Origin: Rhodothermales bacterium | GTDB taxonomy: Bacteria > Bacteroidota > Rhodothermia > Rhodothermales > Bin80 | DNA: 64,000 nt | Direction of reading: 5' to 3' | Assembly (NCBI GenBank): GCA_965207385.1 | Contig: CBDBLZ010000020.1 | Location: 288,932 to 352,931 of the forward strand | Shown here: in pieces, positions 39,256 through 60,286 of the stretch | Position numbering within the stretch: the stretch's first letter is position 1 | Layout of the letters: every line of letters begins with the position of its first letter | The notes under the pieces: generated by a model | Told to the model about the DNA's origin: nothing | The model's database searches: none | Seen by the model: only the letters and a program-made list of their open reading frames with translations | Position numbers and translations under genes: made by a program

Positions 39256-42200
39256 TCACGCGCGCTGGCTTGCCACGCGAGAAGGGCTGTTGGCGCGGAG
39301 GTAAACGGCCATCATGGCCGGCACGAGCACCACCAGGAGGGCGGTGGCAATCATTATGCCAATCCCCAGGGATGCCGCGAAGGGAACCAGGAACTGCGCT
39401 TGTATGGCCCGCTCAAGGATGAGAGGCGTGAAGCAGAGAAAAGTGGTTACCGAGGTCAGGAATATCGGCCGGAACCGCCCTTTTGCGCCGCTGATGATGG
39501 CCGTCTTCGGATCGGCACCTTCCCTGAGTCGCTGATCAATAAAATCCATCATGACCAGGGAGTCGTTTACAACCACGCCGCTTAGCCCAAAGAACCCCAG
39601 AAACGAAACGGCGCCGATGGCTACGCCCAGCACCAGATGCCCCAGAACCACGCCGATGAGCCCGAACGGCACTATGGCCATGATGATAAACGGCTTGAGA
39701 TACGACTTCAGTGGAATAGCCAGCAGCGCGAAAATTGCGAGCATGGCCAGAAGGAAGCCGCGATACAGGGCATCCAGCGAATCCAGCTGCTGTTGCTGTT
39801 CGCCGCCGAAGGAATAGGTGAGCTCCGGGTTGGTTGCCAGAAGCTGTGCCAGGATGGTGTTCTCCAGGATACCGTTCGCCTGTCCTCCGGAAATCACGGT
39901 CACGTCGACATCGGCGGTCACATTCACAACCCGCTGCCCGTCCTGGCGCCTGATGGAAGGTGGCGACGTGCCCATGGTCATGGACGCCGCCTGGCTTATC
40001 GGCACATCTCTTCCCTCCCTGGTACGAATCAGGTATCCCTCGACATCGGTTATCGCCTGGCGCTCTTCGCCGGGAAGCCGGGCATAGACCCGCACCTCCT
40101 CCCGGTCGCGCTGCAGCCTTGTCGCCTCCACGCCAAAGAACGCCGCCCGCACCTGTCGAGCCAATTCCTCTACCGTAATCCCCAGCGTCCGTGCCTCCGG
40201 TCGCAACTCCAGCTGGATCTCTCCCACTCCCGGCGCGTGGTCGGACCGGACGTCGAATACGCCGGCCACACTGCGAAGACCTTCAACGACCGAATCGGCG
40301 ATGGAGACCAGGCGCTCCGGATCCGGATGGGACAGCACGACCGCAACCGGGCTGCCCAAATCGATCACTTCACCGGTGAATTCGATTCCCCGCACGTAGG
40401 GGAGTACGCCGACCTCTTCCCGCCACTGTTGCACCACAGCGATCGTGGACAGATTCCGCTGCTGGGCCCCCAGCAACTTGAACTCGATGGTGGCAATATT
40501 GGACTCCGGATTCGCGGTAGGCTTCGGCTCAAGGCCACCCCCCTCAATGTGAGGCCGCTGACCGACCGTGACAAGCACGCCCCTCAGCAAGGACGGAGCA
40601 TCACCCGGCCTCTGCTGATCCAGGCGCTCCAGGACACGCCTTCCCGCCTGCTCAATCTCCGTGGCCACCTCGTGGGTCCGATCCGCAGGCGTGCCGTCCG
40701 GCATCTCCAGCGTCGCTGTAACGAAATCACCTTCCACCACGCCGGCGAACGATGTCGGAATGATCCCGGCCGGTACCAGGGAAAGGCTGAGCACGAAAAG
40801 ACCAATCACACCCACCACCGTGATGCCGGGGTAATCGACCGAGAATCGCAGCACTCGATCGAGCGGACCCTCCAGAAACCTGTTCAGCCATCGATCCACA
40901 GCTCCACGTGTGCGAGAGAGCAACCGGTCCAGGACGTTGGTCGGCTCCCAATCCGGCCCCGGCAAGTGGGCAAGGTGCCTTGGCAGAACAAAGAGTGATT
41001 CAACCAGCGAGATCAGCAGCATGCCGATGATTATGACCGGCAGCGCCTTCCATACCTCACCAATGCCCCCTGGTACGAAGAGCAAGGGCACGAATGCCGC
41101 CACGGAAGTAAGCACGGCAAACGTAAGGGCTTTCTTGATGCGCCGCGTGCCCCGGATCGCGGCCGCGATGCCGGGTAAGCCCCGCATGCGCTCCAGGTGG
41201 ATATGCTCTGAAACGACGATGGCATCGTCTACAATGATGCCGATCGCCAGCACAAACGCGAACAGCGATATCGTGTTGATTGCCAGGTCCATGGCCAGCA
41301 TGACGGCCAGCGCACCGATGCCCGAGGTAACAAGGCCTACGATAACCCATAGTGCAAGCCGAATCTCGAGAAACAGGGCCAGCGAAACGAACACCAGCAA
41401 GAGTCCCAGAAGACCACTACGGGCCAGGAGGTCCAGCCGCTCCGAATAGGTTTGGGAGTCGTCGTTCCAGATCGTAACGCCGACGCCCTCAGGCAGCGAC
41501 GGCGCAATCACCCCGGCTATGTGGTCGTGCACGGCGCGCGCGACATCCATCACCTGCTCCCCTTCACCGCGATATACCTCCACAAAGACCGCCGGCCGAC
41601 CCTGATGCCGAAGGATCAGGTCCGCATCCTGAAAGGCATCGCGCACACTGGCGATTTCACCGAGGCGGATAGCCGTGCCATCGGTCTGGGCAATGACCAC
41701 AATCTCCTCGAAGTCCAGCTGATCGTAGCTCTGGCCGATGGTTCGAACGCGGACTTCGGCACTGCGCGTCTCGATGCTACCGGCAGACAGGTCAAGCGAG
41801 CTGCGGCGGACCGCCTGCGCGACGTCCTCCAGGGTCAGTCCCAGAGCACGCAGCCGAGCAAGCGGCACTTCAATCGAGATCTCGTACGCCCTGGTACCGG
41901 TAGTTACGACCTGCGACACGCTGGGCAGTGATCCCAGTTCGTCTTCAATCTGGTAGGCCAGTTCCTTTAGGGAGCGCTCGGGGATGTCGCCATAGACTAT
42001 CAGGCGGATCATGCTGGTGCGGTTGTCCATCTCCCGGAACTGGGGACGCTCGGCCACACTGGGAAACGACTGGATGCGCGCTACCGCTGACTGTACCTCG
42101 TCCATGGCCTCGCTTATATCCGTGCCCGACTTCAGCTCAACCCGCACCGAAGCCAGTCCCGGCGCCGCAATGGACTTGACCGCCTTTACGTCTGCGAGCG

Positions 42201-42450
42201 CCTCAACCTGCTCCTCGATCTTGACTATGACCGACTCCTCCACCTCCTCGGGTACTGCACCCGGATACACGATTGAGATCTCTATGGTATTGAACGGAAC
42301 AACGGGCCATGACTGTCGCTCCAGCCCTCCCAATGCCACGAGGCCTGCGGCCAGTATGCCGAACATCAGCAGGTTGGCGGCCACGCGGTTGCTCGCCATG
42401 TAGGCAATGGGCCCGCCGGGCTCCCCGTGATGGGCGTCAGTTCGATTCAT
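39256..42450 (-). CDS. RND efflux transporter permease (AcrB/CzcA superfamily)
   Basis: An internal ATG at 42450 gives MNRTDAHHGEPGGPIAYMASNRVAANLLMFGILAAGL. The protein is about 1060 aa with the 12-TM, two-large-loop architecture, including IGIIVDDAIVVSEHI and GVVVNDSLVMMDFI. Confidence 0.92.
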   Translation of the reverse strand: MNRTDAHHGEPGGPIAYMASNRVAANLLMFGILAAGLVALGGLERQSWPVVPFNTIEISIVYPGAVPEEVEESVIVKIEEQVEALADVKAVKSIAAPGLASVRVELKSGTDISEAMDEVQSAVARIQSFPSVAERPQFREMDNRTSMIRLIVYGDIPERSLKELAYQIEDELGSLPSVSQVVTTGTRAYEISIEVPLARLRALGLTLEDVAQAVRRSSLDLSAGSIETRSAEVRVRTIGQSYDQLDFEEIVVIAQTDGTAIRLGEIASVRDAFQDADLILRHQGRPAVFVEVYRGEGEQVMDVARAVHDHIAGVIAPSLPEGVGVTIWNDDSQTYSERLDLLARSGLLGLLLVFVSLALFLEIRLALWVIVGLVTSGIGALAVMLAMDLAINTISLFAFVLAIGIIVDDAIVVSEHIHLERMRGLPGIAAAIRGTRRIKKALTFAVLTSVAAFVPLLFVPGGIGEVWKALPVIIIGMLLISLVESLFVLPRHLAHLPGPDWEPTNVLDRLLSRTRGAVDRWLNRFLEGPLDRVLRFSVDYPGITVVGVIGLFVLSLSLVPAGIIPTSFAGVVEGDFVTATLEMPDGTPADRTHEVATEIEQAGRRVLERLDQQRPGDAPSLLRGVLVTVGQRPHIEGGGLEPKPTANPESNIATIEFKLLGAQQRNLSTIAVVQQWREEVGVLPYVRGIEFTGEVIDLGSPVAVVLSHPDPERLVSIADSVVEGLRSVAGVFDVRSDHAPGVGEIQLELRPEARTLGITVEELARQVRAAFFGVEATRLQRDREEVRVYARLPGEERQAITDVEGYLIRTREGRDVPISQAASMTMGTSPPSIRRQDGQRVVNVTADVDVTVISGGQANGILENTILAQLLATNPELTYSFGGEQQQQLDSLDALYRGFLLAMLAIFALLAIPLKSYLKPFIIMAIVPFGLIGVVLGHLVLGVAIGAVSFLGFFGLSGVVVNDSLVMMDFIDQRLREGADPKTAIISGAKGRFRPIFLTSVTTFLCFTPLILERAIQAQFLVPFAASLGIGIMIATALLVVLVPAMMAVYLRANSPSRVASQRA

Positions 42451-42673
42451 CGCGCGCACGCTGTACTCTTTCGAATCCGCGCCGGCGATGCAAGAGCAGC
42501 ACGCCGGCATTGCGGACGGGCGTCGACGGCTCTCTCATTCGGAGTTGCCGTCCGGGGGCCGGCCGGATCAAACCCAAGTGGCCCTTCGGGCCCGGCCAGG
42601 GGACCGGCTCCGCCGCCGGTAGGCATGCGCCTTCTGCCAGAAGCTGCCGGGTGCACACAAGGGCGGCCCCGGC

Positions 42674-43897
42674 TCATGGTCCGCTACCGGATCCAGTCCG
42701 CACGGGCATGCCCTGAACGGCCACCTGAATCCCTCCGATAATGGCCTGTTCGCCTCCTTCCAGCGCACCCGTCAGGAAAGCTTCGTCGTCCGAGCGATGC
42801 AAGACGCGCACGGGAACAATGTGGACGGTGCCATTGCGCACAACCCATACTTCGTTTCCCGGCCGCAGCGCAGGCCGCCGTACCCTGAAGTAGGTATCGG
42901 AGGCAACTCCGTCAATCTCCACCTCCACGAACTTGCCTACAAGAAGGGGCGGGCCGCCCTGATCTGCGGCGGGGCTGCCGGCATCCGCATACACGGGCAC
43001 GCCCGGGCCAAACGGATTCGGCACTCGCACGACCACCTCTACGGTGCGTGTACGCTCGTCCAGTGCCGCTTCTGCCCTGTCCACGTAGCCTTGCCAACCG
43101 AACCGCGCATCGGCGTAGGTGGCCACCACGCGAGCCCCCAGGCTCCTGTCGGAGCCTCCCGCCTCCAGCTGCCACAGACCCGGGATGAGCGCCATGCCGG
43201 GATCCGTCAGCGACACCACTACTTCGACCTCATCGGAAGCGTACATCCGTCCCACGCTGCGGCCGGCCGCCACGAACTGGCCTACGGCAACGGATTCATC
43301 CAGCACGACACCCGCAAACGGGGCATGGACGCTGGTGCGCGCAAGCTGCAGCTCGGCTGCCGCAAGCGTAGCCTGGTCCCGGGCCAGCGCAGCTGTGGCG
43401 GCCTCCATTTGCGGCCCCCATAGCGCCAGAGGACCGGTATCTTCGCCGGTCTCACCGCCTTGTCGCAAGGCACTGAACCGATCATACTGGGAACGCGCAA
43501 TTCGCGCCTCCTCCGTAACCCGAAGCAGCTCGACCTCCTGATAGGCTACGCTTGCGCGCGCCTGCTCGACCCTTGTGCGATAGTCGGCGTCATCGATGCG
43601 AAAGAGCAGCTCGCCCGACCGCACCTTCCCTCCACTCTGGAATGCCTGAGCAACCCAAACTACCCTGCCCGCAACCTCGGCCGTGACATCTACCTCGGCC
43701 CGCGGGCGGACCGTGCCCGCTCCGTGCACGGTTATGGATCCCGTACCGGCAACCAGCGGGGCCGTCTCGGCAAACGGAACAGGCGACGGGGCGGGGCGCC
43801 GTGCAGGTTCGGGCCTTCGGGCAACCAGAACCACGGCCACAACTACGGATCCGATCAGGATGCCACCGCCGATGGCGAAGCGCTTAAGTCTGCTCAT
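42674..43897 (-). CDS. RND efflux periplasmic adaptor (membrane fusion protein, HlyD family)
   Basis: An internal ATG at 43897 gives MSRLKRFAIGGGILIGSVVVAVVLVA (anchor). A coiled-coil hairpin (YRTRVEQARASVAYQEVELLR...AAELQLARTSVHAPFAGVV) and beta-barrel segments follow. Confidence 0.85.
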   Translation of the reverse strand: MSRLKRFAIGGGILIGSVVVAVVLVARRPEPARRPAPSPVPFAETAPLVAGTGSITVHGAGTVRPRAEVDVTAEVAGRVVWVAQAFQSGGKVRSGELLFRIDDADYRTRVEQARASVAYQEVELLRVTEEARIARSQYDRFSALRQGGETGEDTGPLALWGPQMEAATAALARDQATLAAAELQLARTSVHAPFAGVVLDESVAVGQFVAAGRSVGRMYASDEVEVVVSLTDPGMALIPGLWQLEAGGSDRSLGARVVATYADARFGWQGYVDRAEAALDERTRTVEVVVRVPNPFGPGVPVYADAGSPAADQGGPPLLVGKFVEVEIDGVASDTYFRVRRPALRPGNEVWVVRNGTVHIVPVRVLHRSDDEAFLTGALEGGEQAIIGGIQVAVQGMPVRTGSGSGP

Positions 43898-44920
43898 ATG
43901 TTCCGCGATTGCGCGGCCTGCCTTTCGATTTGTCTGTGCTTGGGCTACATACCACCAGATCCCGCAAGCGGGCGCAAGACCGTAGGCACCGCGCCTTCTG
44001 TGCGACGATTCGAGGCAGCCGCCGCGCGCCATGAATGCATCTGTGGACCAGTCGCCGGCGCGACGCGCGTCAAGGGCCGTGTTTTGAATGTACGCATGCT
44101 CGCCGCGGTTCTAACGAATGCCGGTTTTGCCGGGGCGGGCTGTTGTGTGTACAGGGCCCTTGCGGGTCCGGGCATCGTCAACGGGCCAGGGATCGCCAAG
44201 AGAAGGGGGCTGGCCTTCCAGGCGGCAAATCGGCTCGGATGACGCAGCGAAACAGGTCCGGCCAACGTACGGCTTCCAGATCTGTCGCAGCACCATAGGG
44301 AATCATTCCCGGAGGCCTCGCTGGAGCCGCATCCGCGCGCTTCCATCCCAGGCGGGAGTATTTCGGCGCTGGAGTTCAGCAACGCGGGCGGGTATCCGAA
44401 GCTCATGGACAGTCTGTAGACCAGGGACAATTATCAAATCCCAGCCGCCTCGCGGGCCGGGCATCCCGAAGCGGAATATGGCAGTTAGACGGTGCATTCC
44501 GCAGCGGCATCCGCCCAGTTCGAACTAACGGCATGCAGTTTTCTCAATGCCCTAATATAATTGTAGCCCGGTCAGAATTGCATTCGCCGCCGCGACATCA
44601 GCAGGTAGTCTCCTGCATTCCCGCCTGTTCTCCCGAAGTCAAGGATCTGCGGGCCTGGGGGCATGATGCAATCATAAGATTTCGACGATATCCCTGTGCG
44701 AATCGCTGCTGACCGCGCCCAATCGCCTCTCGCAAGACCACGGCCTGGCAGGAGTGCCAGCCAGTGGCCCGGTTCATTCTCCGCTCCGCGGATACAGGGC
44801 CTGACTTAGCATGATATGTGTTTGCGCTGCGGCATAGTGGTGAGGGCACGTAGCGAGCCTATTGCTTCGCTGATTCCGCCTTCTGCACGATTGCCGAGCG
44901 TCTGCGTCGGCGATCCCGGC

Positions 44921-45982
44921 TTATCCGGGCTTGCGGGCCAGGAAGCAATAGAGCGGGGTGAATACTCCTGTCTTGCCGCCTGCGACATAGGCATCGGCTG
45001 TTCGATCCATCAGCCGGACGACCGCCGTGGAACCCCTCGGAAATACCTTGAATACCTCCGCCATCCGCAATCCGCCGATCATCGCCTTGCGGCCCAGTGG
45101 CGTCCTGCGAAACGCATTACGCAATGTCCCGCTTTGTCCCTCCATGGGCTGGTACCATGGCGTACCCGTGCCGTCCCGGGCTCCCCGGTCCAACGCTTCG
45201 ACAACCTGGAACCCGACAGCCTCCAGCGCGCGATTCACCTCCGCGAATGTGGCGATGCGATTCAGGGCGATTCCAAGCATGAGTTCATCCTTTACGGCCT
45301 GGTGATGGCTGTTGTCGGGATCAAACTTGTTCGTCATGCACATTTCCTGGCCCCAGAAAAGGGCTCCGGGCTTTAGTACGCGAAAAATCTCGGCAAACGC
45401 GCCTTGCTTGTCGGGCGCGTGGCATGTCGACTCGATCGCGTAACCCGCATCGCACGAGCTGTCCTCAAGGGTGCTCATGTCCATGAAGTTGCACTTCACG
45501 TATTCGGCCAGGCGGTCGAGTCCCGCCTCGACGTTCCGTCGCCTGGCTTTCTCCAGTTGCTGTTCGTTGTTGTTGACGCAAACAACGCTGGCACCGGACT
45601 CGCGAGCGACGCGCCGCATCGGACCGCCCACGCCGCAGCCCACATCAACGACCCGCATCCCCTCGCACAACTCCAGCTTTTCGATCATCAGGCGCTGATG
45701 GCGGATGATAGATTCCTCCAGCGTCTCTGCCGGCGTCAGTGGCGCGAAATGCAGCGACTCGTTCCACCCGTATTCCATGAACTCGCCACACAGATCGTAA
45801 TAATTGTTGACCGTGTCGGCGTGGTCGTAGGCACTGCCGTCGGCCCCGGCCCGCTTTTTGCTCTCGATCCAGTTGCCAAATCGTGCCACACGAGCCGTGA
45901 CATTCCAGCCCCTGTATGAATTCCACAGGGACTTGGACAGGTTGGACAGGTTGGACTGCTCCGTGCCGCGAGTATGTCTCAT
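44921..45982 (-). CDS. sterol C-24 methyltransferase family protein (ERG6/SMT-type, SAM-dependent, with Sterol_MT_C region)
   Basis: 353 aa that aligns by eye with yeast ERG6 along its full length: YYDLCGEFMEYGWNESLHFAP, VDVGCGVGGP, YAIESTCHAP, VLKPGALF, TPWYQP and a C-terminal VAGGKTGVFTPLYCFLARKP. Confidence 0.85.
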   Translation of the reverse strand: MRHTRGTEQSNLSNLSKSLWNSYRGWNVTARVARFGNWIESKKRAGADGSAYDHADTVNNYYDLCGEFMEYGWNESLHFAPLTPAETLEESIIRHQRLMIEKLELCEGMRVVDVGCGVGGPMRRVARESGASVVCVNNNEQQLEKARRRNVEAGLDRLAEYVKCNFMDMSTLEDSSCDAGYAIESTCHAPDKQGAFAEIFRVLKPGALFWGQEMCMTNKFDPDNSHHQAVKDELMLGIALNRIATFAEVNRALEAVGFQVVEALDRGARDGTGTPWYQPMEGQSGTLRNAFRRTPLGRKAMIGGLRMAEVFKVFPRGSTAVVRLMDRTADAYVAGGKTGVFTPLYCFLARKPG

Positions 45983-47069
45983 CGGTTTTTCAGACCTGCT
46001 TCAGATTCGGGACTGAGAACTAATTCTAAGCGATACGCACCACGAGGGTGAATAGAGGGGCCGACAACATCGCCAGCGCAGGCATGTTTGCAGCCGGGCC
46101 AGATTCAGTCGGTATCCGGCGCTGGGACGGGTTTGAGCTGGACTCAAGATACTGCTTCGCAGCACAGTCTGACAGGCCCTGCTGGAGCTTTGGCAGGTGC
46201 TCTGCGCACCGTTGAGCCCATAACCAGGGATCGGTCTCCCAGGTGGCCATCGCGACCCGCCGTCGAAGCTGGTCCTTTGCTTGATCCGGCGCGTTCTCTT
46301 TCCGAGGTAGCAATGGAGGTACCAGGTATCGTTGGTGGCTGCAGACGGCGTCCCATCCGGCCCGTTGCGTCCACTGGAGCCTTGCCTGCGGCAAGTGATA
46401 GCTGTGCAGCTCTTGCCTCCGTGCCGGCCGGCTCCGCGTGCGGCTCCCGCTGGACATTGGAATCCAGGCTGCACGACGGGTTCTGAGCCAGCCGGTTGAA
46501 GTTCTCCGGGATTTGGCATTACAGCAGACGACCGCAGGGGCTCGCCTCGCAGAGTCCCGGATCGAGCTGCGCAAGATCATCTGACAAATCCATGGGCGCT
46601 AATCGACGGCTCGCGCGAGAGGTTCAGAAAACCCCGAATCGATTACGATGCACTATCGCCGGATTTCAACTGAATCCGGCGCCACGCCGGCCTGGAATCC
46701 ACCCAGGAGATGAAGCGGGCATTCACTTACATGAAGGCGGCCAGAAGTACTTTCTCTCACACGTTGGTGCAGCGTAATCGTGACGCGAACTTATTGAAGA
46801 ACCAATTTTTACATTGCAGTGCCGCGCATTCCAAATAGCGGCTCAATGGCCTGGCGCAGCACTGAGAGTACTCTCGCGTGGAGAGGCCGCGACAGCGTAG
46901 GAACTGGGATGCTTCGTCGTTTCCGCATAATGCTGCCCACTTTCTCCGGGAAGAATCTGCCGCCACCTACCCCGGGACCTGGATCCGCACAGGATTGGTT
47001 GCAATGCTGCATCCAATCGTAAATCCACTACCTTGAACGGGTACGCAAATCATTCTCGGCCACCAGTCC

Positions 47070-48134: not shown

Positions 48135-48222
48135 GTAATAAGCTCGGCAGCCCTCGCGCGCCGGGCATCGCTCCGGGGACGGACCGACCGCCCTGTTGAG
48201 TTACACACTTGCGCAGGCGCCC

Positions 48223-49635
48223 ATGGCTAGAGCGGGATCCCAGAGCCCCGGCCAGGGAGTGAGGCCGCGTGCATCACGGCCCAGGAGGGTGGCCATTATC
48301 GGCGGCGGCGTATCGGGACTCGCCACGGCCTGGGCACTGGCTCGCCATCCGGACCGATTCGATTTTCGGCTGTACGAAGCCCAGCCTCGAGTTGGCGGCA
48401 ATGCTATTACCGCCGATATGCCGCAAGCCGACGGTACCCAGATACCGTTCGACGTTTCGGTGACCGCGTGCATCCCGTCGGTCTACCATCATATCCTTCT
48501 GTTCATGCAGCGCCACGGCATTGACCTGGTCGATACCAGGTTCAGCTATAGCGTACGGTACCGAGGCCAGATATACGCGCACGATCTCGACTCAGAGATC
48601 CGAAGGCAGCTGCAGCCGGAAATCGCAAGATTCCAGAAGCTCCTTCGCCGTCTCCAGTGGTTCGGGCGACTGAATCATACCCGGTCAACCCTGCTCAATG
48701 CGCTTAACCCGTTCAATTACCTCACCATGGGCACCGTGCTCAATCTGGGCAGGTTTTCGGGGGCCTTCCGGTACAAGGTGCTGAAGCCCATGTTCGTCAA
48801 CTTCCTTATGGCGACGAACGTCTTTGACATGCCGGCGTCCCTCTTTTGCCGGTACCTGGAGTTCTTTGACATCGAGCGCGCCACGCCGATGCAGACCTGG
48901 GATCGGGGCACGCGGCGCATATACGAAAAGATGACGGAGCCATTTCGGGACCGGATTTACCTGAGCCGACCCGTGCGCAGCGTACATCGAAGCAAGAGCG
49001 AGGTACTGGTCGAGGACGAAGAGGGAACGACCCAATCGTACGATGAAGTGGTATTTGCGTGCACGGCGAACCAGACGCTGATGATGCTGGACAGGCCGAC
49101 CTTCCTGGAGAGCTGGATCCTGTCGTCAGTGCGCTACGAGAGCGAGCTGCACAACCACGCAGTCGTGCATTCGGACGGCTCCATTGTGCCAGACAACGAG
49201 GCCAGGCCCCTGGCGACGCGAAGCACCTACATGGAGCAGTACGGCGTCCGGCCCGACAACTACGAGATCACTTACATCATGCACAACCAGCAGCCTTGGG
49301 CGGCCAGCTCGGACAGACCGTGCCTTGTAACCTATAACCCGAACCACACAATCGACGAGGACAAGATCATCCAGAAATGGTGGTTTCAGCACATCGTCCA
49401 CAATGTTCGCCACGTTGCGATACTTGTACCTCTGTTCCGCTATATCCAGGGCAAGAGGCGCTCGCGGCACTGCGGAGCCCACACGCTGATCAACAGCCAG
49501 GAGACCTGCTTCGTATCCGGCCTCGTAACGGCGCGGCAGATGGGAGCGGATTACCCGTTCAAGGATTCTGAAGCCCGAAAGTGGTTCAACTTCTATGGAC
49601 GCATGATGTACGGATTGCGCTTCAAGAGGGCTTGA
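48223..49635 (+). CDS. FAD/NAD(P)-binding oxidoreductase, amine-oxidase/CrtI-like fold
   Basis: The dinucleotide fold is RVAIIGGGVSGLATAWALA...LYEAQPRVGGN. An ATG at 48223 is chosen; the track ORF begins at TTG 48196. The substrate is unknown. Confidence 0.72.
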   Translation: MARAGSQSPGQGVRPRASRPRRVAIIGGGVSGLATAWALARHPDRFDFRLYEAQPRVGGNAITADMPQADGTQIPFDVSVTACIPSVYHHILLFMQRHGIDLVDTRFSYSVRYRGQIYAHDLDSEIRRQLQPEIARFQKLLRRLQWFGRLNHTRSTLLNALNPFNYLTMGTVLNLGRFSGAFRYKVLKPMFVNFLMATNVFDMPASLFCRYLEFFDIERATPMQTWDRGTRRIYEKMTEPFRDRIYLSRPVRSVHRSKSEVLVEDEEGTTQSYDEVVFACTANQTLMMLDRPTFLESWILSSVRYESELHNHAVVHSDGSIVPDNEARPLATRSTYMEQYGVRPDNYEITYIMHNQQPWAASSDRPCLVTYNPNHTIDEDKIIQKWWFQHIVHNVRHVAILVPLFRYIQGKRRSRHCGAHTLINSQETCFVSGLVTARQMGADYPFKDSEARKWFNFYGRMMYGLRFKRA

Positions 49636-49757: not shown

Positions 49758-51782
49758 ATGGAGACCCTAATCGCGCAGCAACCGATCCGCATCGCCGAAG
49801 AGCTTGTCCTCCTTCTGCTTGACGAACAGAGCGGATACCTGGAGATGGTTCCGGGGTGGAATTTCTCGTGCGTCATGGCCGGGGCCGTTATTGCTGACCT
49901 GGCGCTCGCGGATCGCATCGATACCGACCTGGAGACCCTGTACGTAGTGGATTCGTCGCCAACGCGCGACGATTTGCTGGATGCAACTCTCCGGGAGCTC
50001 GTCGAATCCGAAGAGACGGCCGACGCCCAATACTGGATTGAGCGCAACGCCAGGCGCGCCGACGAAATAGTTGAAGCGACGCTCGAGCGACTCGTAGAGC
50101 GGAAGATCCTGGACTACCACATGGGAGGATTCTGGGGCCATTCCCGCTCGGTATCGCGCTCCGGCACCTATCCGGCCTCCGACGTGGAGACCCGCCGGGA
50201 AGCCAAGGCCCGGATCCTGGACGTGGTCCTGAATGACGTTATCCCGGATCCGCATGATGCCATTCTTATTGCCTTGATGCACACATGCGGCGGCTTCAAG
50301 CTGATTCTCTCGCAGGAAGACTATGACGAGAAGCTCGAATGGATTGAAACCATCGCCAAGCTGGAACTGATAGGCCGAACCGTGGCCACCGCGGTAAGAG
50401 AAAGCACGGCAACGCCGAAGACCCGGCAGGTTATACAGCGGAAGCCTATCCCAAAGCTGCGGATCATTGATGTCCTGCGACAGCCTGAATTCCGCACCTG
50501 TAATATCCCCGAGGCGATGTTTGGCCTCATGCAGAAGCACGGACCGGTGCTTCAATTGCCGGTCAAGATGGACGGGCTCCCTGCAGTTGCGCTCATGGGA
50601 GTGGAAACCAATCAGTGGGTCAACAAGCGCGGGCGCTTTTACCTTCGGTCAAAGGATTACATCAAGCATTTCGAGGCCGCATTTGGTGCCTCCCGGACCC
50701 TGCCTGGGATGGATGGCGCAGAGCATTACAGGATGCGCAAGTCCTTGCGCAGCGTCTACTCGCGCAGCACAATCGCGCGGCGGCTGCAGGAAATCTTCAA
50801 TTACTGCAGGCAATCCCTTGGCACATGGAAGGAAGGCGACCTGCTAGGGGCAACGGAGACGTTTCAGCATCACATCAGCAGCCAGATTTCGAACCTTGCG
50901 ATTGGAGTGGACTGCAGCCACTATGTCCAGGAATTACTGGAGTTTCAGCACCGCGCACTCGTTACCCACGTGCAGGGAGCGTTACCGCGATTCATGCTTC
51001 GTACGCCCAAAATGAGGCGGTATGCGCGGCGCGTGCAGGAGCTGCAGGAATCGGTGCACGCATCGCACACACCGGCGCAAAGAAAAGGCAAGCCGCAGGA
51101 CATTGCAGACGCATTGCTTGAGCTTCACAGGAGCGACCCGCAGTTCCTGCCGGAGACAGATATGACGTTTCCCTTCGTTGCTTCGATGGTCGCGAGCATC
51201 TACATGGGAAGCGCCCTCAGCTTTGCCATGTATTCCCTGGTTCGCAATCCGGACCTGTACGAGAGAGTTCATCGAGAGGCTGCAGCGCTGTTCGGAGGCG
51301 GACGGGACCCGGATGCAAAGGACTTTACGCTGGAGAACATCGATGTCACGCACCGATTCTGCCTGGAGTCCGCCCGCCTGCACCCGGTGATTCCCTGGCA
51401 AATGAGGACGGTCATGAATCAGTGCGTTATCAACGGCTACGAGGTGCCGGCGCAAACCCGCCTCGTGATATGCCAGACCGCTACCCACTATGACGACGAT
51501 TTCTTCAAGGATCCGCTCAAGTTCGACATTGACCGGTACCTGCCAGAACGTGCGGAGCACAAGGTACCAGGCGCCTACGCGCCGTACGGACTAGGAACGC
51601 ACACATGCCTGGGAAGCCGCTGGGTAGAACTCCAGATGGCCGTCAATATCCTGCTCATTGCATACCATTTCAGGCTGGAACCGGTATCCACCAATGGCAA
51701 GCTTCGGATTAATCCGTTCCCGACGGCCGCCCCGACCAGGAAATTCAAGCTTCGCGTCACCGAAATCACGCATCCGATCTGA
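49758..51782 (+). CDS. fusion protein: N-terminal GPP34/GOLPH3-like domain plus C-terminal cytochrome P450
   Basis: Residues 1 to about 220 (IAEELVLLLLDEQSGYLE..AGAVIADLALADRID..LERLVERKIL..RILDVVLNDVIPDPHDAILIALMHTCG) follow the bacterial GPP34 pattern. Residues from about 240 to 674 are a P450, with ExxR (ESARLHP) and the heme loop YAPYGLGTHTCLGSRW. Confidence 0.8.
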   Translation: METLIAQQPIRIAEELVLLLLDEQSGYLEMVPGWNFSCVMAGAVIADLALADRIDTDLETLYVVDSSPTRDDLLDATLRELVESEETADAQYWIERNARRADEIVEATLERLVERKILDYHMGGFWGHSRSVSRSGTYPASDVETRREAKARILDVVLNDVIPDPHDAILIALMHTCGGFKLILSQEDYDEKLEWIETIAKLELIGRTVATAVRESTATPKTRQVIQRKPIPKLRIIDVLRQPEFRTCNIPEAMFGLMQKHGPVLQLPVKMDGLPAVALMGVETNQWVNKRGRFYLRSKDYIKHFEAAFGASRTLPGMDGAEHYRMRKSLRSVYSRSTIARRLQEIFNYCRQSLGTWKEGDLLGATETFQHHISSQISNLAIGVDCSHYVQELLEFQHRALVTHVQGALPRFMLRTPKMRRYARRVQELQESVHASHTPAQRKGKPQDIADALLELHRSDPQFLPETDMTFPFVASMVASIYMGSALSFAMYSLVRNPDLYERVHREAAALFGGGRDPDAKDFTLENIDVTHRFCLESARLHPVIPWQMRTVMNQCVINGYEVPAQTRLVICQTATHYDDDFFKDPLKFDIDRYLPERAEHKVPGAYAPYGLGTHTCLGSRWVELQMAVNILLIAYHFRLEPVSTNGKLRINPFPTAAPTRKFKLRVTEITHPI

Positions 51783-54444: not shown

Positions 54445-56712
54445 TCATGGCAGGCGGCTCAGGCCGAGACCCACGAACAGACCCGGCCGGTCCAGCCTGT
54501 ATGTGAGGTCCAGCTGCACCGGACTCCCCCAAATCCCGGCGAGCGAAATCGTCAGTTCGTGGTGTCCGCCCCCCACGGCGACGTGACCACCGGATATCCT
54601 GATACCGGTACCCCGATCCACCAGCTGCCTGAGCCCAAGCAGCTCAAATGCCGATGTCTGGAAATCGTGTTCCCAGAAGAGCCCCAATACACGCTCACCG
54701 ACGTACGCTGTGGCCCTGGCTGCCCGCAGCATTCCGAATGAAGAGACAGGACCGGGTGTGCCGTCGATTGCTGATCTGCGCACTGCGGGCAGGGCACCGG
54801 TTGCTGTTGCGGCAAACAGCCGAACGGACAGACGATGAGAAATCGGCCTGTGACGAAAGAACGTCCGCGCATATCCGTCTACGCGAGCTGCGGCACGGAA
54901 GAACTTGCGATCACTGCCCGGATTGGCAAGGCTGCCGCGCTCGACTTCCACGCCGATTCCTCGCACGGGTCCGAGCCGAAAGGGTGTGCGAGGATCACCC
55001 GCTGATACTGCAATCGATACGGATTGCAAGCCCTCCTCAAGGACCTTTGGGTTTGGTCGCAGCTCTTTCCGGAAAGGCCATGCGCGTGCCAGTACGGCCT
55101 CCATCGATTCAAACCGCTCCAGATGCCCGGCCAGTGACAGCCGAATCCACCGGGTTGCGTATCCCGCGCGGACCTGGCCTGTCTGCGCCGATACGTAATC
55201 GAAGTAATCGCGGCCCCCGAGCAGCGTATAGAGCGAGCTAAGTGCAGGCGTGACTACGGGGCTGATCCACTGCTGCGCCGTAGCGCGCCCGTAAGAGGCA
55301 TGGGTTGAAAATCCCCGAACCCATCTGCGGCTGGCCTGCACTTGAAAGCGTGTCCGGCCCCCGGCTGTCGGCTGACCTACCCTGCTCCGAAACCGGCTTC
55401 GACGGTCGAATTGCAGTGTCCGGCTTGCTCCGAGGAGGAATCCTTCCACGCGATTGAAGCCGAGCCAGGGCTCCTGCCCCCGGACGGAAGGCCACGAAAA
55501 CTGGGGCTCATCCCACGGAAGTAACGCCGGGCGTCGCTTGCCAACCGTGGGCAGGGCCGTAAGCAACGTCAGACCCCGTCGCGGGAGAATGTCCCACGCC
55601 TCCGCCTCTGCAGGTGTCAAAGCTACGAATCCCCGTCCCAGCAGGAACAGGTCATCCTCGAAGACGGACGCGCTGTCGACAATCGTTCGGTCCTTCTCGG
55701 CATACAAGCTCTCGGGCACACTGATATTCAGGCGGTGGTCAGAAAGCTGGGATACCTGGTGCAAGACCGCCTGAACGGGCTCCCTGCCCGCAGAAATCCG
55801 GCCCTCGAGCCGTATGCTGAGCGGAAGCCAAAGGGAGTCCACTGCCAGGAATTGTTGTCGGTAGAACACGTCCCACCGCTGAATGGGAGGATGCCAGTGC
55901 ACATGCCGGGCTGGCCGCAGTTCTGCAGCTACGAGCGCATACGTGCTGTCCATTACCGAAATCCGCCCCGTGAACGTAGCCTCCAGACTCGTCTTCGGGG
56001 CTACATAAATGTCATACACGGTCCCCTCGTCCATCCTTCGATGCCCCGCAAACGTGAAATGGTAGTGCACGAGGGCATCCGGATGCGTCGGGCCCATAAA
56101 GCGTTGTGACTGTATCTGAATGTGGTTTGCCGACAGGTCGACCACGGTGTGATCCAAGCCAAGGTCGCGGTAAAAGTCTGCCGTCTCGCGCCGCGAGAGT
56201 ATCACGTCCCTGCTGCCGCGGCCGCGATCCCAGAAGCTGTCAAATACCGCCTCGCTCACCAGGACGATTTGTTCGCGGCCCTCCAGCGTGATGCGCGTGT
56301 ATCCCCGCATCTTTCTGGTCAGAAGCCTCGCGCGTCGCGCCGCCTTGCGCTCTATGGCCTTTCGCATCACGTTGTCGGCAAAATCCTCTCCCGTGACCAA
56401 GACTTCATCCAGCGTGTACACGGCGGGCTGCAGATCCACAACCAGGTCTCGATTGTCATTGGGCTCCAGCGCCACGCGGTGGGTCTGATAGCCCACGTGC
56501 CGCACCAGGATCACCTGCGGCAGCGTCTGCAGCACAAGCTCGAAGCGGCCGTCCCGGTTGGTAATGGTCCCGCCGGACTCAGCCACCACGTGCGCAGCCG
56601 CAAGCGGAAGGCCCGAGCGCGCCTCCCGCACTAGTCCTCGCACGAGGATCTGGGCAGGCACGGCATTGGGCAATGCCAGACCCAGGACGACGAGCAAGGC
56701 TGCGCGAGACAC
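54445..56712 (-). CDS. CarboxypepD_reg-like plus DUF5686 outer-membrane protein (paralog B)
   Basis: GTG at 56712, 16 nt after the upstream stop, gives the signal peptide VSRAALLVVLGLALPNAVPAQ. The N-terminal Ig-like domain is ILVRGLVREARSGLPLAAAHVV..GGTITNRDGRFEL. It aligns with the upstream paralog over its full length and has a beta-barrel-like C-terminus. Confidence 0.75.
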   Translation of the reverse strand: MSRAALLVVLGLALPNAVPAQILVRGLVREARSGLPLAAAHVVAESGGTITNRDGRFELVLQTLPQVILVRHVGYQTHRVALEPNDNRDLVVDLQPAVYTLDEVLVTGEDFADNVMRKAIERKAARRARLLTRKMRGYTRITLEGREQIVLVSEAVFDSFWDRGRGSRDVILSRRETADFYRDLGLDHTVVDLSANHIQIQSQRFMGPTHPDALVHYHFTFAGHRRMDEGTVYDIYVAPKTSLEATFTGRISVMDSTYALVAAELRPARHVHWHPPIQRWDVFYRQQFLAVDSLWLPLSIRLEGRISAGREPVQAVLHQVSQLSDHRLNISVPESLYAEKDRTIVDSASVFEDDLFLLGRGFVALTPAEAEAWDILPRRGLTLLTALPTVGKRRPALLPWDEPQFSWPSVRGQEPWLGFNRVEGFLLGASRTLQFDRRSRFRSRVGQPTAGGRTRFQVQASRRWVRGFSTHASYGRATAQQWISPVVTPALSSLYTLLGGRDYFDYVSAQTGQVRAGYATRWIRLSLAGHLERFESMEAVLARAWPFRKELRPNPKVLEEGLQSVSIAVSAGDPRTPFRLGPVRGIGVEVERGSLANPGSDRKFFRAAARVDGYARTFFRHRPISHRLSVRLFAATATGALPAVRRSAIDGTPGPVSSFGMLRAARATAYVGERVLGLFWEHDFQTSAFELLGLRQLVDRGTGIRISGGHVAVGGGHHELTISLAGIWGSPVQLDLTYRLDRPGLFVGLGLSRLP

Positions 56713-56728
56713 GAGTAGCGGCGCGTGG

Positions 56729-59041
56729 CTAGAAGATCCGGGCCATCCCGTATCCAAGCGCGAAGGCTTCGCCGGGATGCCACGCCAAATCAAGCCTCAA
56801 AAAGCCCAGTATCCCGCTAAGAGACATACCCACTTCGTGGTGCCCCGCCGCAGCCCTGAGATCCGCCAAGGCCCACGTGCGGGCATGTGCGCCGAAAACC
56901 AGAATGCTGTAACCCCTTTCAACCAGCGGCCGCAGCCCGAGTACCTCAAAAGGCATCGTGCGGAAATTGTGCTCCCAGAAGAATGCGACGGCGTGCTGGC
57001 CCTCGTACGGCCGACCTTGCAATGTGCGCAGCGAGCCGAAAGGCCGCAATCCTGCCGCCCCGCCCTCCACCAGAAACGACCTCTGCAGGGGCAGCATGCC
57101 GGAGCTTGTGCCGGCCAGGAGGCGGACATGCGCCATCGCCGGCAGCAGCCGCCGCCGTGCGACCGTCTTCAACGCCCACTCTGCAGACAGCTCGTAGCGC
57201 CCATAGCTGTAGTCGCTACCGGCCACGCTGTGCTCTGCTGAAACGCGCACGAATTTCTGTCCGGTCAGCCCTAGAGAGGATTCCGGACCCGAATTGATGA
57301 CGGCGCCCAGGCGAACAGCCCTGAGCCTGGCCGACCGGATGGCGGGATTGGGCCGCTGCACGGCGGCATTGCCCAACAGATCGTAGCTGGTGCTCCGGCG
57401 CTGGGAAGAGTGGTCTTCGTTGCGAATCGAAGCCGTAATCCGGGCCCTGCCGCCCCCGACACGAAGCTCCGTCGCTAGACGATAGCCCTCGCTGCGGTAG
57501 TAGTCAAAATAGTCCTCGCCGCCCAGCAGCATCTCGATGCTGTTCAGCCCACGAGGCACCTGCGAGGATTCATGCCGGATGGCCGTACCTTCGCGGTAGC
57601 TGCCTGTTAGCCTCACGCTCAGCGGCTTGCGGAAGCTCAGGCGAGCCCTGGTCTCGTATGACCACCGCTCCGGACCCGACAGCCCATGGCTCCAGCCACC
57701 GCTGCCGACGAGCCTTAGATGCTCTCCGGCATCCACCGTGGCTGCTGCGCCGGCGTGCAGGGCTTCAACCCGGTTGTACCAGACTTTGGGTGCCAGATTA
57801 AGCCAATCCGGAAGCCGGTCCCCGCCGGCCTCCCTTCCCTCGGACTCCGAAAAATCTACACGAGACATGCGCGCCGCCGCTCCCCTGGGCTCAAACGCCT
57901 CCAGAATGGAGACGGTCGTATCCGTGCGGGCGTAGGCAAGCTGCTCCGCCGGAAGCAGGGGCACAGCCAGGCCCTCTCGATGTAGTGCACTGTCTGCCGC
58001 TACCGCCGCGGAGTCCACGCGCATATACTCCTCGCTCTCAAACAGGTCCTCCGGGACGTCGGCATTCACCTGGTAGTCAGTAAGGCGCGATACCTGCGCA
58101 AGGTTCATGGGCGGAAAGCGAAAAAGCCGGCTAATGCTCAACTGCATGGAACCCTCGAAGCGAAAATCCACGGGAAGCCAGAACTGTCCTCCAAAGGACG
58201 AAAACTGCTGCCGGTACGTCACGGACAGAGAGCGAATCGGGTACGGAAAGAGGAACGCATCCCCGGGCTGCAGCTCTGCCTCCAAAAGGGCATACTCGTC
58301 GCCGTGCACCGACACCCGGCCCCGAAACCCGCTGGTAAGCCGCGTCCTCGGTTCTACGGAGATATCGTATACCTCCGTGTCGTCGATCCTGCGCGTTGCC
58401 TCGAGACTGAACCGGTAATGGGACAGTGCATCGGGATGGGTAACGCCGATGAGTCGGTGTCCGGCCACGGAGACATTGTCGTCATACAGGTTGGCCACCG
58501 TGCCGGCCGCGGGTATCAGATCATCCCCCAGTTCCGCACCTACTGTCTTCCTGGTGCCGACAATCTCCTCCCGCATTCCGCGCTCCCGGTCCCAGAATGC
58601 ATCCGAGACGGACTCGAGAATGAACACGATGCCCGTATCGTTGGAAACCGTATAGCGGCTGTACGCGACGGCTTCAAAGGTCTCCAGCGCCGCCCGCCAC
58701 TCCTTCTTGCGCTTGATCACTTCCCGCATGATCTCGATGGCGGGATCCTCCCCGGTGACGACAATCTCCTGCATGACCATGGCGACCGGAGCCAACTCCA
58801 CGAGCAGCTCTTCGCCGGATGCGGTCACTACCTCCAGACGTCGCGTGGCATATCCGATATGCCGGATCAGCAGGGTGGCGGGCACAGCGTCCAGGTCCAG
58901 CTCGAAGCTGCCTGCAGCGTTGGTGATTGTGCCCCTGTACGTGCCCTCTACCTGGATGGTGGCGGCGGCGAGGGGCTCCAGCGATCGCTCATCCACGATC
59001 CGTCCGCGTATCGGCTGGGCGTTTGCCGTCAGGCTGCCCAC
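56729..59041 (-). CDS. CarboxypepD_reg-like plus DUF5686 outer-membrane protein (paralog A)
   Basis: The track ORF starts at GTG 59041 (..GSLTANAQPIRGRIVDERSLEPLAAATIQVEGTYRGTITNAAGSFEL). The reading frame stays open upstream to 59110 and encodes a good signal peptide (LKLKSALAARPQLLVLFLWVV) with only CTG codons available as starts. The true start is uncertain (59041 to 59101). Confidence 0.72.
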   Translation of the reverse strand: MGSLTANAQPIRGRIVDERSLEPLAAATIQVEGTYRGTITNAAGSFELDLDAVPATLLIRHIGYATRRLEVVTASGEELLVELAPVAMVMQEIVVTGEDPAIEIMREVIKRKKEWRAALETFEAVAYSRYTVSNDTGIVFILESVSDAFWDRERGMREEIVGTRKTVGAELGDDLIPAAGTVANLYDDNVSVAGHRLIGVTHPDALSHYRFSLEATRRIDDTEVYDISVEPRTRLTSGFRGRVSVHGDEYALLEAELQPGDAFLFPYPIRSLSVTYRQQFSSFGGQFWLPVDFRFEGSMQLSISRLFRFPPMNLAQVSRLTDYQVNADVPEDLFESEEYMRVDSAAVAADSALHREGLAVPLLPAEQLAYARTDTTVSILEAFEPRGAAARMSRVDFSESEGREAGGDRLPDWLNLAPKVWYNRVEALHAGAAATVDAGEHLRLVGSGGWSHGLSGPERWSYETRARLSFRKPLSVRLTGSYREGTAIRHESSQVPRGLNSIEMLLGGEDYFDYYRSEGYRLATELRVGGGRARITASIRNEDHSSQRRSTSYDLLGNAAVQRPNPAIRSARLRAVRLGAVINSGPESSLGLTGQKFVRVSAEHSVAGSDYSYGRYELSAEWALKTVARRRLLPAMAHVRLLAGTSSGMLPLQRSFLVEGGAAGLRPFGSLRTLQGRPYEGQHAVAFFWEHNFRTMPFEVLGLRPLVERGYSILVFGAHARTWALADLRAAAGHHEVGMSLSGILGFLRLDLAWHPGEAFALGYGMARIF

Positions 59042-59110: not shown

Positions 59111-60286
59111 CTATACGGCTGCACGTTCGAGGAATGCGTCGATTTGACCCTGTTGACTACGCGCGTCTTCCCATCCCAGTTGCATGATGGTATGCACGTA
59201 ATCGCGGTTGAACAGCAGCATGCTGAGCCAGTCAGGGCTCCGGGTCTGGTCAGTGCCAAGTCCCCGGGTGATCAGTCTCAGGGCCCCGCCGCTGGCAAAG
59301 TCGTAGTTGGCGGCAAGCTTCGCCAGGTCGACAGACGGTCTGAGAAGCAGCAGGTTGACGGGCCTGAAGCGGCTTGGCGTGCCCGGGGCGTGGCCCTCCA
59401 GGAGCTCGTTGATGGTCTCCAGTGTGGTGGCATCCTGCTCAAGCGCATCCAGAAAGATGGCATTCAGCATAATGCCGATGATCTGCGCCAGCGGCGGCGC
59501 ACCGTCCACGGCCGGCGTGTCCGCCTCCCGCCGGGATCGGCCGTAGCGCGTGGAAATGGCCAGAATGCTGGTGGCTCCCAGCTGGATGGCCGGCGCCAGT
59601 GGCGTGGTCAGCCGAATGCCCCCGTCGCCGTACCAGGCATCGCCAATGCGCACGGCGGGGAACAGTACGGGCAGGGATGTCGAGGCCATTACATGGTCAA
59701 GCGTAAGCTGCGCGTTGCGTCCGACATGGTTGGGGTGCTTCCAGTCGGAGACTTCGCGGCCCTGTATCCATGTCACGGTCTGGCCCGTCGTGTAGCTTGT
59801 CGTTGTAATGCAGGCTGCCTTCAGCCTCCCTGCATCCACGTTGTCGGCAATGCCCGAAAGTAATGCCCGATCGGGGTCCATGTGCCGGCTCAGAAAATGC
59901 TCCAGCGGCTTCGTATCCAGGAGCGAGCCTCCCGATCCCAGGTGCCGGAAGACGTTGGCTACGCGGCGAGCTGCCGGAAGCGTTCCCAGAATGCGGTGGT
60001 ATAGTGACAGGGCCGACTGCGCCGCGAAGACCTGATCGCTCGATATATCCAGCCAGCACTGCAGCAGGTCTTCGGCCGCCCGGGAAATATGTCCGGGGTG
60101 ATTGGCCAGGTACGACGTGTTGATGGCGCCCGCAGAAACGCCGCTCAAGATCGGAAAAGACAATGCCGGCCGGGTCTCCGTAATGTAGCGAAGCACGCCG
60201 GCCTGGTATGCCGCGCGCGCACCGCCACCGCCGAGTACAAGGGCCGTTGACCGGTTCGTTGCGGCGCCATCTACACGCGTTGCCAT
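59111..60286 (-). CDS. patatin-like phospholipase
   Basis: The oxyanion motif is ALVLGGGGARAAYQAGVL and the nucleophile elbow is GVSAGAIN (GxSxG). The catalytic Asp is in a later DGG context (WYGDGGIRL). Confidence 0.9.
   Translation of the reverse strand: MATRVDGAATNRSTALVLGGGGARAAYQAGVLRYITETRPALSFPILSGVSAGAINTSYLANHPGHISRAAEDLLQCWLDISSDQVFAAQSALSLYHRILGTLPAARRVANVFRHLGSGGSLLDTKPLEHFLSRHMDPDRALLSGIADNVDAGRLKAACITTTSYTTGQTVTWIQGREVSDWKHPNHVGRNAQLTLDHVMASTSLPVLFPAVRIGDAWYGDGGIRLTTPLAPAIQLGATSILAISTRYGRSRREADTPAVDGAPPLAQIIGIMLNAIFLDALEQDATTLETINELLEGHAPGTPSRFRPVNLLLLRPSVDLAKLAANYDFASGGALRLITRGLGTDQTRSPDWLSMLLFNRDYVHTIMQLGWEDARSQQGQIDAFLERAAV

Follow-up and report, generated by a model that had tools for sequence, protein, structure and literature searches.

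A GPP34-cytochrome P450 fusion of the GPP34_L family with an altered I-helix, in an island of sterol-type tailoring genes and an RND pump

Cytochrome P450s joined in one polypeptide to a GPP34 domain, the domain of the eukaryotic proteins GOLPH3 and Vps74, have been described under the name GPP34_L, a monophyletic set of 656 proteins from many phyla that is expressed in Aplysina aerophoba and confined to the symbionts of sponges (Ferreira et al. 2025, Microbiome 13:4; PMC11706023). The same study records rare fusions of GPP34 to a Rieske domain and to an ABC ATPase, and it proposes that GPP34 proteins are secreted effectors, which bind phosphatidylinositol 4-phosphate (PI4P) of the host and block the maturation of phagosomes. 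Manipulation of host phagosomes is the sole functional idea published for this family, one of the few reported to be exclusive to sponge symbionts. The words sterol, methyltransferase, RND and efflux do not occur in that paper, the I-helix is not mentioned in it, and a search for literature linking GPP34 to sterols or efflux found nothing relevant. The protein considered here is encoded at positions 49758..51782 of a 64,000-nt stretch of DNA from a Rhodothermales bacterium (assembly GCA_965207385.1, contig CBDBLZ010000020.1, positions 288,932 to 352,931 of the forward strand), which I will call the window. It has both Pfam domains of GPP34_L in the same order, a similar length and no structural difference, and it is therefore a member of that family.

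The described gene clusters closest to its surroundings are the sterol clusters of sponge symbionts, which carry an oxidosqualene cyclase (OSC), CYP51, ERG24 and sdmAB (PMC10070321; bioRxiv 10.1101/2020.08.31.276493). The sterol C-24 methyltransferases (SMTs) of these symbionts methylate sterols in vitro (PMC10070321), and neither source describes the GPP34-P450 fusion or its pump. The island considered here resembles the "steroid cassettes" of Brown et al. (2023, PMC10070321) in the presence of an SMT and probably in its ecological setting. It is without OSC, a true CYP51, ERG24 and sdmA/sdmB, and it contains, unlike the cassettes, the GPP34-P450 gene, a KshA-like Rieske gene, an FAD oxidase and an RND pump.

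The fusion itself is thus already described; its sterol and efflux context, the affinity of its P450 domain to CYP51, a deletion in its I-helix and the lack of conservation of its PI4P pocket seem not to have been reported previously. The island in which the gene sits is horizontally mobile and combines enzymes of sterol-type tailoring with a tripartite RND pump. On sequence comparison I consider it somewhat better than an even chance that the product is a P450 that docks on the membrane and tailors sterols or lipids like them, as part of a horizontally spread island that modifies and exports them. The census of neighbouring genes, the relatedness to CYP51 and the unconserved PI4P pocket point to a chemistry of lipids, most likely sterols, that is coupled to export, and the island context, the CYP51 affinity and the I-helix change together make a concrete and testable alternative to the published effector hypothesis. 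The matter bears on how symbionts of many phyla have adapted to life in sponges and on who makes the unusual side-chain-alkylated sterols that serve as the oldest animal biomarkers. The landmarks of the fusion gene, all on the + strand, are as follows.

49758..51782, +: the complete open reading frame (ORF) of the GPP34-P450 fusion, beginning with ATG and coding for 674 aa, stop codon included in the coordinates; a GPP34_L member
49791..50402, +: GPP34/GOLPH3-like domain, residues 12-215, from Pfam PF05719, profile matches to GOLPH3/Vps74 and secondary structure
50403..50498, +: inter-domain linker, residues 216-247, conserved, without stop or frameshift
50499..51746, +: cytochrome P450 domain, residues 248-663, from Pfam PF00067 and Foldseek, with CYP51 nearest by profile
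51153..51242, +: I-helix, residues 466-495, from DSSP on an AlphaFold2 (AF2) model
51192..51209, +: oxygen-groove motif in altered form, A479-S-I-Y482-M-G484, with an invariant Tyr and a residue fewer than A-G-x-(D/E/H)-T, the canonical form
51366..51377, +: ExxR of the K-helix, E537-S-A-R540, invariant (n=56 sequences)
51585..51614, +: haem-ligand loop Y610-GLGTHT-C617-LG619, with G611, H615 and C617 invariant and G613 and G619 conserved in at least 90%

The ORF was first called from the sequence alone, and it is present as described, with every peptide then quoted found in its translation. That it is a genuine fusion in a single reading frame is now well established. The cut-offs of Pfam are passed both by the GPP34 domain (PF05719, residues 12-215, E=6.7e-33, 114.9 bits against 29.1) and by the P450 domain (PF00067, residues 248-663, E=8.4e-38, 130.7 bits against 22.8). 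The junction between the domains reads through in relatives as it does here, and residues P220, P230, I231 and P232 of the linker are invariant in the clade to which the query belongs (n=26 sequences). A search of 5.8 billion proteins found at least 120 clusters (formed at 90% identity) that carry the same architecture at 66-83% identity; their lengths are 671-704 aa, with one exception of 635 aa, and both Pfam domains were pre-annotated in all of them. An exhaustive search of representatives chosen at 50% identity gave 339 proteins at E<=1e-30, dozens of them full-length fusions with 25-59% identity, and in an alignment of 56 sequences the divergent fusions match the query from end to end. 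The AF2 model of the whole chain, built with that alignment, has a mean pLDDT (predicted local distance difference test) of 90.5 and a pTM (predicted template modelling score) of 0.86, which suggests that the GPP34 and P450 domains have a defined mutual arrangement. No transmembrane-like segment and no signal-like N-terminus were seen in the 674 residues.

It is hardly conceivable, then, that two adjacent genes were merged by an error of sequencing, assembly or annotation, and I have rejected that explanation. The prior that metagenome assemblies hold frameshifts is the sole support for it, and against it stand the recurrence of the full-length architecture in the independent clusters and in 79 loci from several phyla, closed chromosomes included, the conserved linker and the confident two-domain model. 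A frameshift or lost stop need not be invoked, since the linker is conserved and the architecture recurs. The same numbers, together with the 656 published proteins, overturn the view of the original prediction that the fusion is unusual.

The P450 domain is complete, as had been claimed, with both its ExxR motif (ESAR) and its Cys loop (YGLGTHTCLG) present and conserved. In 56 fusion representatives with identities down to 25%, none departs from E537, R540 or C617. The segment FDIDRYL stands where the PERF motif is expected, and the loop Y610-GLGTHT-C617-LG satisfies the haem-thiolate pattern F/YxxGxxxCxG. Foldseek recovers the P450 fold, with a TM(target) of about 0.8 and E~1e-17 to many P450 structures. 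Among proteins of solved structure, the best relatives found by a single-sequence search (phmmer) are CYP51s, weakly (70 bits). A profile of the fusion family, compared with the Protein Data Bank (PDB), has as its top match the CYP51 of M. capsulatus, at 236 bits and E=4e-69 over the whole P450 domain, and 14 of the 20 top chains are CYP51. Membership of a P450 family requires, by the rules of nomenclature, at least 40% identity. The fusion P450 has about 19-25% identity to CYP51 (19% in the Foldseek alignment to 6mcw), and the absence of a CYP51-type I-helix signature, which had been noticed at the outset, is borne out, in that A-G-(Q/H)-H-T-S is not found. CYP51 is the nearest characterised family by profile, and the domain is therefore CYP51-related without being a CYP51; membership was rejected. 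None of CYP74, CYP8A, CYP5A and CYP152 appears among the top PDB matches, and a scan with NCBIfam gave only matches far below cut-off (CYP152, E=0.003, 16 bits).

The CYP51 of M. capsulatus is itself a bacterial P450 fused to an accessory domain (6mcw, 7jj1), in that case a ferredoxin at the C-terminus rather than a GOLPH3-like domain at the N-terminus. It shares with the query a Cys loop of the form G-x-H-x-C, in which a His stands two residues before the Cys. The I-helix of a sister clade of fusions, A-G-H-Y-T, resembles the A-G-H-H-T of CYP51, whereas the I-helix of the query is one residue shorter than that of CYP51.

The canonical P450 I-helix is distorted at the site A-G-x-(D/E)-T, forming a groove for O2, and the acid-alcohol pair found there is typical of the superfamily, though not obligatory. 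The canonical motif, here [A/V]-G-x-[D/E/H]-T, is present in 31 of the 56 fusion representatives, where 15 residues lead from the "PETD" cap to the Thr and 16 from the Thr to the Pro that ends the helix; the CYP51 of M. capsulatus has identical spacing. The other 25 (the query clade, the sister clade and two outliers) are one residue shorter, with the gap falling within the motif. What is left in the query clade, A479-S-I-(gap)-Y482-M/L-G, has neither an acidic residue nor Thr/Ser at the pair. Y482 stands at the position of the Thr if the helix is anchored C-terminally and at that of the acid if it is anchored N-terminally, and alignments to CYP51 differ by just this one position, the profile giving the C-terminal register and the single sequence the N-terminal one, so that the segment opposite the CYP51 signature reads A-S-I-Y-M-G-S or V-A-S-I-Y-M. 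The acid-alcohol pair is missing in either register, as the original prediction had it. The register V-A-S-I-Y-M that it gave is one of two that are equally defensible; the anomaly it described is real, and its cause is a deletion of one residue.

The 79 loci contain 86 fusion genes, and 74 of these have VAS[IL]Y[LM]GS. Paralogous second copies have IAGHY[LVT]GS, and the Tyr is kept in 85 of the 86, the exception being a disrupted fragment; the residue that follows it is variable. As far as the alignments go, the I-helix change is a derived feature specific to the query clade. The deletion probably regularises the helix at the O2 groove. A lost residue in the groove combined with an invariant Tyr makes textbook monooxygenation assisted by Thr improbable. 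A missing pair, which the original prediction likened to that of isomerases, dehydratases or peroxygenases, does not establish such chemistry or independence of O2, because the hydroxyl of the Tyr at the site, or one of the substrate, could replace that of the Thr. P450s that lack the acid-alcohol pair include the CYP74 allene oxide synthases, CYP8A1, CYP5A1, the CYP152 peroxygenases, P450 EryF and XplA, all of which resemble the query in having no conserved Thr and no acid at the site of oxygen activation. The Cys loop of the query is presumably of ordinary length, unlike that of CYP74, and a one-residue deletion combined with an invariant Tyr is not known from these families. A clade-specific deletion of this kind amounts to a clean natural experiment on P450 mechanism.

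The assignment of the N-terminal part to GPP34 also proved correct. A profile made from 19 fusion N-termini matches GOLPH3 (3kn1/9qpq) at E~1e-13 to 4.5e-14 and Vps74 at E=4.5e-12. In the secondary structure of the AF2 model, the domain is all-helical with a beta-hairpin at residues 118-128, and it shares with GOLPH3/Vps74 (3kn1, 9qpq, 2zii) both the core of helices and a beta-hairpin that follows the "RLVxxGIL" helix. Unlike the eukaryotic proteins, it is covalently joined to an enzyme and does not have their long inserts. The residues of GOLPH3 that contact PI4P are W81, R90, R171 and R174 (PMC3596250). Aligned to full-length GOLPH3, the query appears to have A41 in place of R90, D102 in place of R171, V105 in place of R174 and P32 in place of W81, with a conserved Trp (W34) two residues on. 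Three of the four contacts, and the basic pocket as such, are on this alignment not conserved, and one of the positions is acidic. By analogy, the domain may still dock on a membrane or lipid, with a ligand other than PI4P, and the original suggestion that it may tether a membrane lipid as substrate for the enzyme agrees with the context and is plausible. No stand-alone GPP34 gene was found elsewhere in the window.

The genes of the island, on the same coordinates as the fusion, are listed below.

39256..42510, -: RND efflux permease (AcrB family), Pfam ACR_tran 509.6 bits; NCBIfam RND_permease_2 397 bits, below cut-off
42674..44032, -: RND periplasmic adaptor (membrane-fusion protein), Pfam HlyD_3; TIGR01730 137.9 bits, above cut-off
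44921..45982, -: homologue of sterol C-24 methyltransferase (SMT), transcribed divergently, Pfam Methyltransf_11 + Sterol_MT_C, 59 bits
47070..48134, +: Rieske non-haem-iron oxygenase of KshA type, Pfam Rieske + KshA_C
48196..49635, +: FAD oxidoreductase of the amine oxidase family, directly upstream of the fusion, Pfam Amino_oxidase/NAD_binding_8

The FAD oxidoreductase apparently shares an operon with the fusion; its nearest PDB entry is LkcE (E=2e-20). The nearest to the Rieske protein is the 3-ketosteroid 9alpha-hydroxylase KshA (E=1e-24). As SdmA the Rieske protein scores 41 bits against a cut-off of 600, which is not membership, and the match of the SMT in NCBIfam is far below cut-off. 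The block from SMT to fusion has a GC fraction of 0.586, as compared to 0.619 in the rest of the window, which is housekeeping in character (purH, mreBC, dacB, surA, dapF, fumC, htrA, aroB, tamB).

To see which of these neighbours are constant, 109 relatives in GTDB (one genome per species) served as the starting set, from which 79 loci were fetched, 54 of them with full flanks of 10 kb; neighbours were counted by tblastn over the 79 loci and by unbiased clustering of ORFs. Labels such as L001 refer to these and other related loci. The same set of neighbours recurs, with shuffled order and orientation, in Rhodothermales, Acidobacteriota, Gammaproteobacteria and Latescibacterota. Of the components of the pump, the permease is present in 47/54 full-flank loci, the adaptor in 50/54 and one or the other in 53/54, and an outer-membrane efflux factor (PF02321) was found in 51 of all 79. 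The Rieske gene is present in 39/54 full-flank loci (51/79 of all), the SMT in 29/54 (35/79) and the FAD oxidase, at 75-94% identity, in 15/54 (20/79); at least one of these three enzymes accompanies the fusion in 51/54. That the gene belongs with the neighbouring SMT, as the original prediction had it, is supported. Pre-annotated contigs bear out this set of neighbours, and some islands in them add a TetR regulator and a gene of the metallo-beta-lactamase fold.

All 79 loci come from uncultured metagenome-assembled genomes (MAGs), of Rhodothermales, Bryobacterales and other Acidobacteriota, Latescibacterota and several Gammaproteobacteria. Like GPP34_L as published, the relatives of the query are spread across phyla, and many of their isolate labels (APA_bin, SB066x_bin, RHO, COS, IRC and, in L067, "lac_sponge") agree with data sets on sponge symbionts. 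At 97% identity L001 is the closest locus; its source, an uncultured Rhodothermaceae bacterium, accords with other genes of the window (DUF5686, CarboxypepD_reg). Identities of 56-72% across phyla indicate horizontal spread. One label, that of L040 (isolate Plut_88867), may hint at a host other than a sponge, possibly a coral, and if it is truly non-sponge, the published sponge-only distribution needs widening. L017 bears an implausible taxonomic label, Bifidobacteriaceae.

Several genomes have two fusion genes in or near the island. In L011 and L025 the copies are at 64-70% identity, whereas L042, L057, L061 and L077 have divergent paralogues with 44-47% identity and the I-helix A-G-H-Y-[LV]-G. 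Two ORFs make up the second copy of L008, which is split.

Two related loci (L080, 12065-13249; L081, 5038-6183) have, between fusion and SMT, two short pieces that look like gene remnants, one from an RND permease (199-213 aa) and one from a squalene/oxidosqualene cyclase (163-173 aa). The cyclase remnants suggest that a triterpenoid cyclase gene was formerly part of the island or took part in recombination with it.

If the favoured reading of a lipid-tailoring enzyme is right, the protein would be soluble or peripheral, its GOLPH3/Vps74-like helical domain rigidly joined to a haem-thiolate P450. By analogy with its eukaryotic homologues, GPP34 might hold the enzyme to the bacterial membrane from the cytoplasmic side, playing the part that an N-terminal anchor plays in eukaryotic sterol P450s, with a membrane-embedded sterol or sterol-like lipid entering the active site. 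A sterol derived from the host or the community could then be oxidised or otherwise tailored by the P450, the Rieske protein and the FAD enzyme, methylated by the SMT and exported through the tripartite RND pump. The P450 might activate O2 with the help of the Tyr or of the substrate, or it might rearrange a sterol that is already oxygenated. I infer the membrane docking, the sterol substrate, the direction of transport and the type of reaction from the comparisons above; the leaning towards sterols comes from three separate enzymes that point there, the P450 by its CYP51 profile, the Rieske protein by KshA and the SMT by Sterol_MT_C. A more specific proposal, which I would call a long shot, is that the P450, the KshA-like Rieske protein and the FAD oxidoreductase are the missing partners of the symbiont SMTs and remodel the side chains of host sterols, and that the pump returns the products. 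Were it true, such remodelling (by desaturation or rearrangement) would permit extra methylations, as in the 26-methyl/aplysterol-type and 24-isopropyl sterols of sponges, and it would be bacteria rather than the animal that shape the "sponge biomarker" sterols.

A number of observations weigh against a sterol-tailoring enzyme. The window has no oxidosqualene cyclase, squalene epoxidase or CYP51, so that the enzyme would depend on imported sterol, and the islands inspected have no gene for a ferredoxin or reductase. The second match of the fusion-family profile, at 206 bits, is CYP120A1, whose substrate is a retinoid, and Foldseek against the PDB does not discriminate among P450 families, CYP51 being favoured over neither BM3 nor CYP184A1. 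Docking of GPP34 on the membrane would follow solely from the analogy to GOLPH3/Vps74. Finally, the SMT is missing from about half of the loci, and the pump is of a generic multidrug type, its permease below the cut-offs of NCBIfam subfamilies. These last two points also favour a different explanation, that the island provides general xenobiotic defence as a detoxification module of phases I/II/III, in which GPP34 only places the P450 near the pump and the targets are not sterols but lipophilic toxins of the sponge or its other symbionts, such as terpenoids, brominated alkaloids or polyketides. The near-constant presence of the pump beside the fusion fits such a role, as do the TetR and metallo-beta-lactamase-fold genes of some islands and the sulfotransferases, EcKL kinases and MFS/TRI12 pumps paired with other clades of fusions (below). 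Against it stand the three independent enzymes whose nearest relatives act on steroids or sterols, the cyclase remnant and the specificity of Sterol_MT_C methyltransferases for olefins of the sterol type, those of sponge symbionts acting on sterols (PMC10070321). I regard xenobiotic defence as a serious but rather doubtful candidate.

The proposal of Ferreira et al. (PMC11706023) would make the long form, too, a secreted effector that binds PI4P on host phagosomes, with the P450 assisting. It draws on the restriction of the family to sponge symbionts, its eukaryote-like domain and its expression in the sponge, and against it stand the exchanges at R90, R171, R174 and W81 of GOLPH3, the lack of a signal-like N-terminus or transmembrane segment, and the constant linkage to RND/MFS pumps and to tailoring enzymes of the cytoplasm. 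The loci inspected showed no genes for a secretion system, and a haem enzyme of 674 aa that requires electrons or co-substrates is an unlikely protein to be translocated. For this member of the family I consider the effector role improbable. Even less probable is that the island supplies entry steps for the breakdown of steroids, in which the P450 and the KshA-like oxygenase would open or hydroxylate host steroids for use as a carbon source. KshA is indeed a catabolic enzyme, and P450s start the degradation of the cholesterol side chain in actinobacteria; the P450 here, however, resembles CYP51 and not CYP125/CYP142, the partner SMT is anabolic, the constant partner is an efflux pump and not an importer, and no beta-oxidation, KstD, Hsa or Mce-type genes were found in the island.

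The fusions outside the query clade keep other company. A second large clade, at about 35% identity to the query and found for example in Gemmatimonadota, has the canonical I-helix A-G-L-D-T. Its members adjoin eukaryote-type Sulfotransfer_1 genes (L084, L085, L087), accompanied in some cases by genes for a CysQ-like Inositol_P protein, a PhyH dioxygenase and an acyltransferase, or else (L086, L088, L091, L092, L094, L095) have an adjacent kinase of the EcKL (ecdysteroid-kinase-like) family and/or an MFS/TRI12-type pump; an SMT stands beside them occasionally (L088, L109). These neighbours hint at sulfated or phosphorylated lipid products. Judged by gene content, the theme that runs through the whole family, a P450 together with an exporter and an enzyme that conjugates or alkylates, is that of tailoring of small lipophilic molecules and not of a secreted effector.

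In one locus of the canonical clade (L110, 6366-8765), two FGE-sulfatase genes (formylglycine-generating-enzyme-like) lie by the fusion. There are also stand-alone P450 relatives (L101-L105, L111-L112, L116-L117, L124-L147), with 34-53% identity to the P450 domain of the canonical clade, in whose fetched flanks no GPP34 gene was detected. Stand-alone GPP34 genes occur as well (L163, L166).

The divergent SMT and Rieske genes of the window are separated by an unusually long gap of 1.1 kb (45983-47069). Only the first ~550 nt of the gap align to L001, the 97%-identical twin, which has an insertion of ~170 bp and then diverges. ORFs in the gap have no match in Pfam, and a search of Rfam over 38-53 kb of the window found nothing. 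Directly upstream of the pump genes (33560-38260, +) is a gene for a 1566-aa protein of the TamB family (translocation and assembly module), probably housekeeping and unrelated to the island. On the other side of the fusion (54445-59041, -) are two adjacent paralogues of 782 and 770 aa with CarboxypepD_reg + DUF5686, which are typical of the Bacteroidota/Rhodothermota lineage, and next to this pair lies a gene for a patatin-like phospholipase (59111-60286, -).

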